The notes under the pieces were generated by a model, which was not told the origin of the DNA, did not search any database, and saw only the letters and a program-made list of their open reading frames with translations. Both the position numbers and the translations under genes were made by a program. DNA of 64,000 bases, taken from positions 4,503 to 68,502 of the forward strand of contig JBAXGO010000001.1 of assembly GCA_037139335.1 (NCBI GenBank). Direction: 5' to 3'. Origin of the DNA: a bacterium. GTDB taxonomy: Bacteria; Patescibacteriota; Dojkabacteria; JAOAGR01; JBAXGO01. Of the stretch, positions 16,861 through 20,160 are shown piece after piece. Every line of letters begins with the position of its first letter. Position 1 is the first letter of the stretch.

Positions 16861-16889
16861 TTGACAATAGTATTTCAAACTGATATTAT
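16861..16889 (+). promoter_or_regulatory. Consensus sigma70 promoter (TTGACA-17-TATTAT) for the 16S rRNA transcript
   Basis: ttgaca, a 17-nt spacer and tattat lie about 140 nt upstream of the 16S 5' end. Confidence 0.6.
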
Positions 16890-17028
16890 CACGATGCTTT
16901 ATCAAAACTAAAGCGTTTTTCAATAAGGTTTTCTGATTGAAATCCCAAATGATCATTAACAATCTACAAGTGGTAAGAGTGCAATTTGAAACATAATTGC
17001 AAAAATATTTTTTCGTCAATTTATACTA

Positions 17029-18603
17029 AGAGTTTGATCCTGGCTCAGGATGAACGTTGGCGGTGTGCCTAAGCACATGCAAGTCGAGCGATTTCTATTT
17101 TCTAGCTTGCTAGGAAATGGGAGTAGCGGCGAACGGGTGTAGAACGAGTAGATAACCTGCCCTTGACATCGGGATAGTCCTGCGAAAGCGGGGGTAATAC
17201 CGGAGATGTCATAGAAATGAAAATACTATGACCAAAGCAGTAATGCGGTCAAGGAGGGGTCTGCTTCCTATCAGCTTGTTGGTGGGGTAATGGCCTACCA
17301 AGGCGATGACGGGTAGCTGGTCTGAGAGGATGATCAGCCACATGGGGACTGAGACACGGCCCTGACACCTACGGGTGGCAGCAAATAGGAATATTGGGCA
17401 ATGGGGGAAACCCTGACCCAGCGACACCGCGTGAAGGATGAAGAATCTAGGTTTGTAAACTTCTTTTGTATGGAAATAAGCCGCAAGGTGAAGGTACCAT
17501 ACGAATAAGCAGCGGCTAACTACGTGCCAGCAGCAGCGGTTATACGTAGGCTGCAAACGTTATCCGGAATCATTGGGCGTAAAGAGATGCGTAGGCGTTC
17601 TGGTAAGTTCTTGGTGAAAGCTCCCGGCTCAACTGGGAAACTGCTGAGAAAACTATCAGAATAGAGTGGAGAAAAGGTGATTAGAATTCCTGGAGGAGTA
17701 GTAAAATGCGTTGATACCAGGAGGAATACCAATGGCGAAGGCAATTCACTAGTCTCTAAAAATTTGTTAATAAATTACCGGGCATAGCCCTCAGTAATTT
17801 GTTAACAAAACTGACGCTAAGGCTCGAAAGCGTGGGGAGCGAAACGGATTAGATACCCGTGTAGTCCACGCCCTAAACTATCCTTGCTAGGTGTTTAGTT
17901 ACAACTGTACGGCGTCTTCGGACAAAGTATAGGGGTAATTAGGTGCCACAGTTAACACGTTAAGCAAGGCGCCTGGGGAGTACGGTCGCAAGACTAAAAC
18001 TCAAAGGAATTGACGGGGATCCGCACAAGCGGTGGAGCGCGTGGTTTAATTCGTTAACAAACGAAGAACCTTACCAAGGCTTGACATGTATGGAATCTCG
18101 GGGAAACTTGAGAGTGCCCGCAAGGGAACCATAACACAGGTGTTGCATGGCTGTCGTCAGTTCGTGTTGTGAGATGTTGGGTTAAGTCCCTTAACGAGCG
18201 CAACCCTTACTGTATGTTACATTTCTTACAGGACTGCCTCGCTAAAACGAGGAGGAAGGTGGGGATGACGTCCAGTCCTCATTGCCCTTATGCCTTGGGC
18301 GACACACACGCTACAATGGTCGAGACAGAGGGTCGCGAAACAGTAATGTGAAGCTAATCCCATAAACTCGATCTCAGTTCAGATTGTCGGCTGAAACTCG
18401 CCGACATGAAGTTGGAATCGCTAGTAAACGCGTGTCAGCAAGGCGCGTTGAATACGTTCTCGGATCTTGTACACACCGCCCGTCAAGCTATGGGAGTTGG
18501 GGGGACCCGAATGTCGCTACCGCGGCAGAAGGTCAAACCAGCGACTGTAGTTAAGTCGTAACAAGGTAGCCGTAGGGGAATCTGCGGCTGAATCACCTCC
18601 TTT
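17029..18603 (+). rRNA. rrs: 16S ribosomal RNA
   Basis: Starts AGAGTTTGATCCTGGCTCAG and ends ...GAATCACCTCCTTT (anti-SD). It is about 1575 nt long, with an expanded helix near 17729-17812. Confidence 0.92.
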
Positions 18604-18880
18604 TTAAAGGAGCTTTGAATCAGATCACACTGATTCATCAAAAATTTATAAAATACATTGTAATTCGATTGAAAAAATACTCTTACCGCTTGTAGGCAGT
18701 TAATGATCTTTTTTCTTTTTCAAAGTTAAAAAGTTCATAAGTTAAATAGGTTAGTATGTTATTGTTACCCTGAGCTTGTCAAACCAACACCATGACAACT
18801 ATTTTTGTTAAATTTTCTTCACTAGTTTTTTCTTCCTAAACGCATTACCATTTACTCTTAACTTTTAATTCTTAACTGAT

Positions 18881-19222
18881 ATGCAGGTAATACTAAAAAG
18901 TGACTCCGTTGAGTACCATAATGCATCTTCATGTACAGCGATAGAATATCCATCAAATGAAAAAGATATTAATATTGCGGGAATTATTATAAACGGCCGT
19001 TATCCCGAAACTGGTCTTGCTTATAACAAGGTTTGTAAGCTCATGGCTTATGTAGTAAAAGGTAGTGGAAAACTTGTCGTAGAAAGCCTAGAGGTTGTCT
19101 TAAATATAGGTGATGTCGTTACTATTAATCCAATGGAAAAGTACTACTGGGAAGGCTCTATGGAGCTAATAATGCCAAGTGTACCAGCATGGACACCAGA
19201 TCAATATATACATGAGGAATAA
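18881..19222 (+). CDS. Small cupin-fold protein (no metal-binding His motif)
   Basis: 113 aa with a beta-barrel-like pattern (GDVVTINP...). It lies between 16S and tRNA-Ile. Confidence 0.4.
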   Translation: MQVILKSDSVEYHNASSCTAIEYPSNEKDINIAGIIINGRYPETGLAYNKVCKLMAYVVKGSGKLVVESLEVVLNIGDVVTINPMEKYYWEGSMELIMPSVPAWTPDQYIHEE

Positions 19223-19410
19223 ATCTTGAATATTAGATCGATAAAAGATAAATTCCGTGAAATTTAAATGATTTTTATGGCTGAATTATTTACGCGTGAG
19301 TTATACGAAAAGATTAGTGATAATTCACATTATGTTTATGTAACTATACAAAAACGAGAATCCGAAGATGAGCAACCGAAAATCATGTTTTAGAGTTTAA
19401 TTTTGGAGCT

Positions 19411-19734
19411 ATGCTTGGAGATAGATCTAAAATAATAATTAAGTCGTTATCAGAGTTGTTAAAACAAGGATATGCTGAAATTAGTAGAGGAGATCTTTTA
19501 TTCGAAAGACCTAAACAGGGTGAGGAAATAATTCAAAATGGTGATTCTTTTTTGAGAACACATTTCATTACGGTCACTGGAAATGAAAGCGGTTCAGTAG
19601 TTGAAAATGGGCGTAGAGCAACTTGTATGGCAATTCAAAATATTGTTGGAGATAATGTTGGTGTTGTAGGAAAAATTGGTTTTGAATCTCGTGTTGTTTA
19701 CGATACACAAAAAATACCTATAATTAAGCCTTAG
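19411..19734 (+). CDS. Hypothetical protein
   Basis: 107-aa ORF between 16S and tRNA-Ile with no motif recognised. Confidence 0.35.
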   Translation: MLGDRSKIIIKSLSELLKQGYAEISRGDLLFERPKQGEEIIQNGDSFLRTHFITVTGNESGSVVENGRRATCMAIQNIVGDNVGVVGKIGFESRVVYDTQKIPIIKP

Positions 19735-19900
19735 AATATTGTTTAATAGTTATTGATAATTATCAGCTTTACTGGTAACATTCTTTTGCTGTTTTTCAAA
19801 ACGGTTCTTTCTTTTTTGTAATATTTAGGAACTGTATTTAGGAAGACATAGATTGAGTTTATAGTATTCGTTATTGGCGGTTGCAGAAAGATATGGTTAC

Positions 19901-19977
19901 GGGCGATTAGCTCAGCTGGTTAGAGCGCAGTCCTGATAAGACTGAGGTCCTTGGTTCGAGTCCAAGACCGCCCACCA
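19901..19977 (+). tRNA. tRNA-Ile (GAU)
   Basis: Cloverleaf with anticodon loop ctGATaa and a TTCGAGT T-loop. CCA is encoded. Confidence 0.9.
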
Positions 19978-20055
19978 TTTGTCAGTTAACAGTTTAAAAT
20001 TAAAAATTAAGAGTTTTGGCACAGTATTCAGAAAAACAACTTTTAATTGATTTTG

Positions 20056-20131
20056 GGGCCCTTAGCTTAGCTGGTAGAGCGCCTCGTTTGCAACGAGGAG
20101 GTCAGGAGTTCGAATCTCCTAGGGTCCACCA
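20056..20131 (+). tRNA. tRNA-Ala (UGC)
   Basis: Anticodon loop ttTGCaa and the G3:U70 identity pair. CCA is encoded. Confidence 0.9.
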
Positions 20132-20136
20132 TAAAG

Positions 20137-20160
20137 AAATCCCGTGAGGGATTTTTTGCT
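20137..20160 (+). terminator. Rho-independent terminator immediately after tRNA-Ala
   Basis: aaatccc-gtga-gggattt followed by tttgcttttt. Confidence 0.7.

Follow-up and report, generated by a model that had tools for sequence, protein, structure and literature searches.

The ribosomal RNA (rRNA) locus described here lies in a 64-kb stretch of DNA (64,000 nucleotides; hereafter the window), which forms part of a 142-kb metagenome contig (ENA ERZ27300129, k141_247086) and has a G+C content of ~32% outside the rRNA genes. The 16S gene, the spacer transfer RNA (tRNA) genes, the 23S gene and the 5S gene follow one another in that order, all on the + strand. By the Rfam boundaries, 4958 nt separate the 16S gene from the 23S gene, and this spacer holds eight open reading frames (ORFs): three before tRNA-Ile, in a cassette headed by a cupin-family gene, and five between the tRNA-Ala terminator and the 23S gene. 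The analysis concerns the division of this locus into transcription units and the protein-coding genes lodged between them. The RNA genes are as follows.

17022-18603, + strand: 16S rRNA gene, full-length match to Rfam RF00177 (1343.7 bits)
19901-19977, + strand: tRNA-Ile(GAU), CCA encoded (ARAGORN)
20056-20131, + strand: tRNA-Ala(UGC), CCA encoded (ARAGORN)
23562-26684, + strand: 23S rRNA gene, full-length Rfam match
26816-26931, + strand: 5S rRNA gene (Rfam)

Both large rRNA genes exceed the length of their models (1582 nt versus 1533 for 16S, 3123 nt versus 2925 positions for 23S), and the expansion segments contain no ORFs; compared with a related locus designated L011, the 23S gene carries an extra stretch of ~58 nt near 24908-24981. 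An earlier note on this DNA had placed an ORF at 18881-19222, a 41-codon ORF and a 107-aa ORF after the 16S gene, with tRNA-Ile(GAU) and tRNA-Ala(UGC) downstream of them. All three ORFs were found where it put them, on the + strand, and ARAGORN returned the same two tRNAs.

Promoters, processing stems and terminators

Each of the 16S, tRNA-Ile and 23S genes is preceded by a promoter-like sequence of one shared architecture, and the 16S and 23S genes are flanked by separate inverted repeats that would fold into processing stems. These elements, together with two predicted intrinsic terminators, are listed below.

16861-16898, + strand: predicted 16S promoter, with −35 TTGACA (16861-16866), a 17-nt spacer containing TGa, −10 TATTAT (16884-16889) and then cacga-TGCT
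16947-16980, + strand: leader arm of the 16S stem, the presumed substrate of ribonuclease (RNase) III (inverted repeat I1, 34 nt, 85%)
18679-18712, + strand: trailer arm of the 16S stem, forming a duplex with the leader arm
19753-19790, + strand: predicted tRNA-unit promoter, TTGATA-17 (TGg)-TAACAT-tcttt-TGCT, followed by the boxA-like TGCTGTTTTTCAAAAC
20134-20167, + strand: intrinsic terminator of the tRNA unit, with a 10-bp stem, GTGA loop and T run (−11.6 kcal/mol)
23352-23389, + strand: predicted 23S promoter, TTGCGG-17 (TGa)-TAATAT-caccg-TGCT
23463-23501, + strand: leader arm of the 23S stem (−45.7 kcal/mol), a stem also present in L011
26690-26730, + strand: trailer arm of the 23S stem, pairing with 23463-23501
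26938-26969, + strand: intrinsic terminator of the 23S-5S unit, with a TTTTTT tail (−10.7 kcal/mol)

The 16S promoter matches the consensus at 11 of 12 positions and is the top site of the 11.5 kb scanned, and TGCTTTATCAAAAC, directly after it, resembles boxA. The predicted tRNA-unit promoter sits between the three-ORF cassette and tRNA-Ile, and its leader motif is also present in the 16S leader (repeat D14). A search for the composite pattern TTGNNN-N14-TGN-TANNAT-N5-TGCT on both strands of the window returned exactly 3 matches against 0.01 expected (16861, 19753 and 23352, all on the + strand), a count that is partly circular, the pattern having been composed after the sites were seen. The weight of the promoter argument is therefore placed on the positions of the sites and on their conservation, not on the number of matches. 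The distances from TGCT to the gene are 126 nt for 16S, 111 nt for tRNA-Ile and 173 nt for 23S. Across five related genomes, the TTGACA, the A/T positions of the −10 element and the TGC of the 16S promoter are invariant. The 23S promoter aligns with that of a second related locus, L014, and its equivalent in L011 reads TTGTCA-17-TGaTAAAAT-cacga-TGTT. In L011 and L014, the spacer just before tRNA-Ile has diverged except for a conserved block of 38 nt, which includes an extended −10 element (TGrTAAATT-tacgc-TGC).

Promoter-like sites (8149-8186 and 8415-8432) also stand before two tRNA-Met(CAU) genes elsewhere in the window (8196-8270 and 8433-8506, respectively). Both sites combine an extended −10 element with N5 and TGC, as in the rRNA promoters, and the second runs right up to the first base of its tRNA.

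The 16S stem is the longest inverted repeat of the region, with a calculated duplex stability of −49 to −61 kcal/mol, and 11 of its 25 pairs show compensatory changes across four genomes. The locus is probably a split ('unlinked') rRNA locus of a bacterium resembling the Candidate Phyla Radiation (CPR)/Patescibacteria, built of three tandem, self-sufficient units with accessory genes in the gaps. The first unit would comprise the promoter at 16861 and the 16S gene within its own leader/trailer stem; the second, the promoter at 19753, tRNA-Ile, tRNA-Ala and the terminator at 20134-20167; and the third, the promoter at 23352, the 23S gene within its own stem, the 5S gene and the terminator at 26938-26969. 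Genome-specific accessory genes would have lodged in the gaps, with the three-ORF cassette between the first and second units and the five further ORFs between the second and third.

The promoter at 16861 proposed in the earlier note was borne out (TTGACA-17-TATTAT with an extended −10 TG at 16861-16889), as was the strong terminator that it set right after tRNA-Ala, at 20137-20160 (hairpin 20134-20157/9, −11.6 kcal/mol); folding of the 16S leader and trailer, which it had suggested, yielded the processing stem 16947-16980/18679-18712. It had described the usual operon as interrupted by protein genes and ended before the 23S gene. That description stands insofar as ORFs split the 16S gene from tRNA-Ile/Ala and a stop precedes the 23S gene, whereas the notion of one operon gives way to three predicted promoters, separate processing stems and ORFs that lie upstream of the tRNA promoter. 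The promoters at 19753-19781 and 23352-23380, the five ORFs past the terminator and the 16S processing stem are additions to that account.

Genes in the gaps and in related loci

The cassette between the 16S gene and tRNA-Ile contains three ORFs.

18881-19222, + strand: cupin-family gene, 113 aa, intact (homologues, invariant columns)
19268-19393, + strand: 41-codon ORF of doubtful coding status (open frame only)
19411-19734, + strand: 107-aa ORF, probably coding (codon score, length)

Eight homologues of the cupin protein were identified (38-54% identity, E = 1e-16 to 1e-29), of which six carry precomputed PF07883 (Cupin_2) matches, and the protein retains all 22 of the 22 invariant alignment columns. 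Its own Cupin_2 (PF07883) score of 16.9 bits lies below the Pfam gathering cut-off of 27.2, and its codon score (0.29) falls inside the range of real genes. Judged from its sequence, the cupin gene is real and intact. The neighbourhoods of its homologues are ordinary protein-coding regions that are not adjacent to rRNA genes.

The other two ORFs are less securely identified, and it must be asked whether the frames between the 16S gene and tRNA-Ile are genes at all, rather than chance or decaying frames in a long spacer. For the 107-aa ORF, a word-indexed search of 5.8 billion proteins found no homologue and a full HMMER search of 1.84 billion representatives returned the ORF itself and one marginal 27-residue match; its single-sequence AlphaFold model is of low confidence and uninformative (predicted local distance difference test score, 38). 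The 41-codon ORF is merely open, with a codon score at the low end (0.205) and no family match above noise, and Pfam and NCBIfam gave no match above threshold for the ORFs of this cassette. Against the non-gene explanation stand the eight homologues and complete set of invariant residues of the cupin protein, and the codon score of the 107-aa ORF (0.452, compared with a real-gene mean of 0.38 ± 0.11), which is higher than for any of the window's shadow ORFs. In addition, a + strand ORF reaching 107 aa occurs in 0.28% of random sequences of matched composition, and a pair of them in none of 5000, so the two long ORFs (the cupin and 107-aa ORFs) exceed chance expectation. As an account of the cassette as a whole, the non-gene explanation is improbable; taken ORF by ORF, it is somewhat favoured for the 41-codon ORF, unlikely for the 107-aa ORF and scarcely credible for the cupin gene. 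The earlier note's treatment of the ORFs as coding is thus upheld for the intact cupin gene and, by appearance, for the 107-aa ORF, while the 41-codon ORF is doubtful.

Translation of the spacer ORFs is presumed from these features. Shine-Dalgarno sequences are nearly absent from the window's genes (all those of at least 200 aa were examined), the upstream regions being just A/T-rich, despite the CCUCC anti-Shine-Dalgarno tail that the 16S rRNA keeps. In a genome all but devoid of Shine-Dalgarno sequences, their absence does not count against translation; the lack of one was considered as an argument against the cupin gene and rejected, as nearly no gene in the window has one. Apart from the two tRNAs, a permissive Rfam scan of 18590-23570 gave just one match, to the rimP leader and at chance level; it detected neither a riboswitch nor a known leader ahead of the cupin gene.

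The second insert, between tRNA-Ala and the 23S gene, comprises the following.

20212-21757, + strand: + strand part of the insert, a nucleotidyltransferase and three ORFs of unknown function
20212-20487, + strand: MntA/Pol-beta-like nucleotidyltransferase, 91 aa, weakly matching the model of the MntA antitoxin
20438-20701, + strand: 87-aa ORF
21003-21356, + strand: 117-aa ORF
21383-21757, + strand: 124-aa ORF
21765-22967, − strand: YkuD-type L,D-transpeptidase gene (PF03734, E = 3.8e-21), facing the rRNA direction

A − strand gene (21765-22967) lies between the rRNA genes, an arrangement in which one promoter would not be expected to serve both 16S and 23S. Just past the tRNA-Ala terminator, the nucleotidyltransferase and the 87-aa ORF overlap by 50 nt, and 20212-20701 may represent a degenerate MNT/HEPN-type toxin-antitoxin pair. 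The spacer ORFs contain no homing endonuclease domains of the LAGLIDADG, HNH or GIY-YIG type. Neither insert is bordered by direct repeats, the window contains no second copy of the tRNA-Ala 3′ end, and its spacers encode no integrase; the idea that a recognizable element integrated recently is therefore unsupported.

Syntenic loci were found by scanning metagenomes for MnmA, whose gene precedes the 16S gene, and by look-ups of MnmA homologues, the nearest of which, among 5.8 billion proteins, is 67% identical. Four of the loci (L012, L013, L018 and L019) stop at or before the 3′ end of the 16S gene and are uninformative on the spacer. L014 (MnmA 65% identical) is contiguous: its 16S gene is followed by 583 nt, tRNA-Ile, tRNA-Ala, 379 nt and the 23S gene, giving an internal transcribed spacer of 1139 nt. 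In L011 (16S 89% identical), the 530 nt between the 16S gene and tRNA-Ile have no convincing ORF, and 2.7 kb with three unrelated + strand ORFs precede the 23S gene. In L016 (MnmA 52% identical), the 16S gene and tRNA-Ile are 5 kb apart, genes on either strand occupy the interval, and the locus includes no 23S gene. A more distant CPR locus (L006) places seven co-oriented ORFs between 16S and tRNA-Ile, and a Dojkabacteria genome (L008) places two between tRNA-Ala and 23S. The same insertion, which the earlier note had thought worth seeking in related rRNA loci, was not encountered: homologues of the window's spacer ORFs are missing from all of the relatives' loci. The units and their order are thus conserved, whereas the gaps have repeatedly received differing accessory genes.

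Several further features of these loci were observed. In L014, an 80-aa called ORF of unrelated sequence (3917-4159) occupies the slot of the cupin cassette, between the post-16S terminator described below and the tRNA promoter block. L016 encodes a serine recombinase with Resolvase and Recombinase domains (18437-19873), past tRNA-Ala and convergent to it, which hints at an integrated element, and the locus carries, in addition, a tRNA-Ile whose anticodon is UAU (548-624). Variation extends to the interval that separates MnmA from the 16S promoter, which holds, in the window, a 228-aa ORF without homologues (16004-16690), an opposite-strand zeta-toxin/AAA-like gene in L014 (1377-1892) and unrelated ORFs in L013 (11129-11863) and L018 (3196-3726).

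A scan of a genome collection with the 3′-terminal 29-mer of the 16S gene returned five loci, namely two distant CPR genomes, their 16S ~80% identical, and three contigs of Altiarchaeum (Candidatus Altarchaeum). The 29-nt end, GTAGGGGAATCTGCGGCTGAATCACCTCC, is identical in these three contigs (L007 7362-7390, L009 5543-5571 and L010 2560-2588), in which the rRNAs are scored as archaeal and the 16S is only ~60% identical overall; the sharing is an odd convergence in the helix 45/anti-Shine-Dalgarno region. The window's 16S is 79-80% identical to that of a complete Dojkabacteria genome and of a 'Saccharibacteria' metagenome-assembled genome. The organism is uncultured and is treated here as CPR/Patescibacteria-like, from a lineage not yet sampled.

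Since the window comes from a MEGAHIT-style metagenome contig, and rRNA genes are classic break and chimera points at which several relatives' contigs indeed stop (at 16S), a short-read assembler might have fused sequences of different origin at rRNA and tRNA genes, which are conserved. This is very improbable: the order MnmA-16S-Ile-Ala-23S-5S recurs in the independent assemblies of L011 and L014, the inserts match the rest of the contig in G+C content and codon usage, the trailer stem and the promoters are contiguous with the inserts, and the contig spans 142 kb.

Because contiguous relatives carry promoter-like sites, and two of them a terminator after 16S, the modular layout would be ancestral in the lineage and insertions tolerated. 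Beyond the partial circularity of the pattern count, several points weigh against the interpretation as three self-sufficient units. Promoters and terminators alike are predicted from sequence. MAFFT aligns the relatives' promoter with a block ~45 nt downstream of the tRNA promoter in the window, an offset that makes the positional homology of the latter uncertain. Three or four relatives have usable flanks, and even the closest are too distant (16S ~89%, MnmA 61-67%) to date the insertions or give their direction. Finally, the proposed CPR placement is based on ~80% 16S identity and general genome traits, not on phylogeny.

Transcription into the cupin cassette

The earlier note had seen no terminator between the 16S gene and the ORFs and, for intrinsic terminators, this is correct: no canonical hairpin with a T run was found between 18604 and 18880. 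The sole structure there (18752-18801) is weak and branched, at −7.5 kcal/mol over 50 nt, and is followed by TTTTTGTT. The T run at 18711-18723 was considered as a terminator tail and rejected, as it pairs with the leader to extend the processing stem and has no local hairpin. Soon after the trailer arm, L011 carries, near position 13900 of its locus, the hairpin GACACGA-GAAA-UCGUGUC with a T run (−9.3 kcal/mol), and L014 carries, near position 3895, a longer GGCGCGA-GAAA-UCGCGCC helix, again with a T run (−25 kcal/mol). Two compensatory pairs distinguish the two hairpins, and neither has a counterpart in the window. As the relatives keep a terminator at this position, the ancestral state is taken to be termination after 16S; the contiguous L014 locus seems, from its sequence, to end 16S transcription there and to restart at the tRNA promoter.

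With no recognizable intrinsic terminator between the 16S gene and the ORFs, read-through becomes possible. The relatives' post-16S terminator has no equivalent in this genome and, in the explanation proposed here, polymerase from the 16S promoter would run partly into the cupin cassette, a suggestion of read-through, at least in part, that we hold to be nearly but not quite evenly balanced. Cleavage within the 16S stem would then set the 5′ end of the cupin messenger RNA (mRNA), and its 3′ end would come from either an RNase P cut at tRNA-Ile or termination at 20160.

Carried further, the same observations could describe a single unit, running from the 16S promoter through the 16S gene, the three ORFs and tRNA-Ile/Ala to the terminator at 20160, in which the ORFs would be true operon members dependent on the rRNA promoter. 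Besides the missing canonical terminator in 18604-18880 and the lack of the one seen in relatives, this account draws on the common orientation of the genes, the short gaps between them and the weakness of any promoter of the cupin gene's own, for which the best candidates are TTGTCA-18-TATTTT at 18776 (9 of 12 positions) and an extended −10 element at ~18757. However, a promoter of the 16S/23S architecture stands between the ORFs and tRNA-Ile, which argues that the tRNAs are independent of the 16S promoter, and in the relatives the 16S unit ends with a terminator and the tRNAs have a conserved promoter block of their own. The ORFs are, moreover, absent from all relatives and are therefore not integral to an operon, and a C-rich stretch resembling a Rho-utilization (rut) site lies ahead of the cupin gene. 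We regard the single unit as a serious candidate, if a somewhat doubtful one.

The C-rich, G-poor stretch in question spans 18764-18861, with a C/G ratio of up to 4.75 versus 0.74 for the window; upstream of the cupin start there are 19 C versus 4 G in 78 nt, the region's sole negative GC skew. It also counts against read-through as proposed here, as it could load Rho and halt the polymerase ahead of the cupin gene. The cassette might then be an independent small operon, with 16S transcripts ending earlier (by Rho-dependent or unrecognized termination) and a weak promoter of its own within 18712-18880. Termination after 16S in the relatives, the untranslated C-rich stretch, the weak structure at 18752-18801 with TTTTTGTT behind it, the promoter-like sites at 18776-18805 and ~18757-18765, and the occurrence of cupin homologues elsewhere as ordinary chromosomal genes are all compatible with this arrangement. 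It lacks a strong signal, however, the hairpin being branched and weak and the promoter candidates having either a poor −35 or a poor −10 element, and the boxA-like leader, if it acts as such, would be expected to suppress Rho-dependent termination of transcripts from the 16S promoter. An independent cassette is, on these grounds, rather doubtful, but well worth retaining beside partial read-through from the 16S promoter.

Extended to the lineage, the explanation by three units and partial read-through leads to a more tentative proposal, which we think unlikely in its entirety: that the rRNA 'operon' would not be an operon even where it is contiguous, its units having their own promoters of shared architecture and a conserved 16S terminator, and that in this genome the terminator would have been lost at the cupin cassette, so that the rRNA promoter would drive an mRNA trimmed at its two ends by RNase III (16S stem) and RNase P (tRNA-Ile). 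The recurring promoter architecture, the separate stems and the relatives' post-16S terminator, taken together, suggest that modular transcription preceded, and permits, physical unlinking.

Comparison with known systems

The canonical rrn operon (E. coli rrnA, rrnD, rrnH) resembles this locus in gene order, orientation, spacer tRNA identities and leader/trailer stems. A boxA-like motif follows the promoter in the canonical operon too. Differences lie in the spacer. Here it holds eight ORFs, one of them on the opposite strand, and is punctuated by a terminator and two predicted promoters, so that a single primary transcript would not be expected. Its length, 4958 nt compared with roughly 400-500 nt, also exceeds the limit of 1500 bp for linked genes used by Brewer et al. 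(bioRxiv 10.1101/705046; ISME J 2020), who define a locus with a spacer >1500 bp as unlinked and count Patescibacteria among the clades rich in unlinked rRNA genes.

A division into three transcripts has a precedent in Borrelia burgdorferi, whose rRNA region was shown by reverse transcription PCR to give three independent transcripts (Bugrysheva et al. 2011, PMC3037291). In both cases there are three units, one of them consisting of spacer tRNA only, and the 23S-5S genes are separate, here as predicted from sequence. In Borrelia, however, tRNA-Ala goes with 16S, tRNA-Ile is transcribed alone and the 23S-5S genes are duplicated, whereas here tRNA-Ile and tRNA-Ala form one predicted unit; the lineages are unrelated, and PMC3037291 reports no protein genes co-transcribed with rRNA in Borrelia. 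Should read-through into the cassette prove true, the present locus would offer a naturally occurring protein gene under an rRNA promoter, matured by the nucleases that process rRNA and tRNA.

Protein-coding insertions within CPR rRNA genes themselves (introns or intervening sequences with homing endonucleases) are mentioned in PMC8172020. They share with this locus the presence of protein-coding sequence at the rRNA locus of a CPR genome, but the ORFs described here lie outside the 16S and 23S genes, in the gaps between units, and carry no endonuclease domains, and both rRNA genes match their Rfam models over their full length.

A close parallel is provided by the unlinked rRNA genes of CPR bacteria (10.1101/705046; PMC8172020 Fig. 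3, types C and D). In a survey of circularized CPR genomes, 27 of 34 were unlinked and protein genes were noted in the spacers, while Saccharimonadia and Gracilibacteria are given as clades that keep the operon (Lui et al. 2021, PMC8172020). The present locus agrees with them in its spacer length, which lies beyond the 1500-2000 bp criterion, in keeping 23S and 5S together, in having tRNAs, protein genes and an opposite-strand intervening gene in the spacer, and in belonging to a small, low-G+C, CPR-like genome. By spacer length and opposite-strand gene it corresponds to type D. The arrangement is therefore real but fairly ordinary, one more case of a documented pattern already described for CPR, and the earlier note's view that protein genes at an rRNA locus are unusual does not apply to this lineage (PMC8172020; 10.1101/705046). 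Unlike the published cases, which are sorted by distance and strand only, the units are mapped here in silico by promoters, terminators and stems, and the protein genes are not homing endonucleases; this anatomy, with the promoter architecture found three times, the separate stems and the relatives' post-16S terminator, is what is modestly new. If true, pre-existing modularity would explain how readily CPR rRNA genes drift apart and take up accessory genes. A further difference from the published descriptions is that the relatives show promoter-like sites before tRNA-Ile and 23S even when their genes are contiguous, and 'linked by distance' need not mean 'co-transcribed'.

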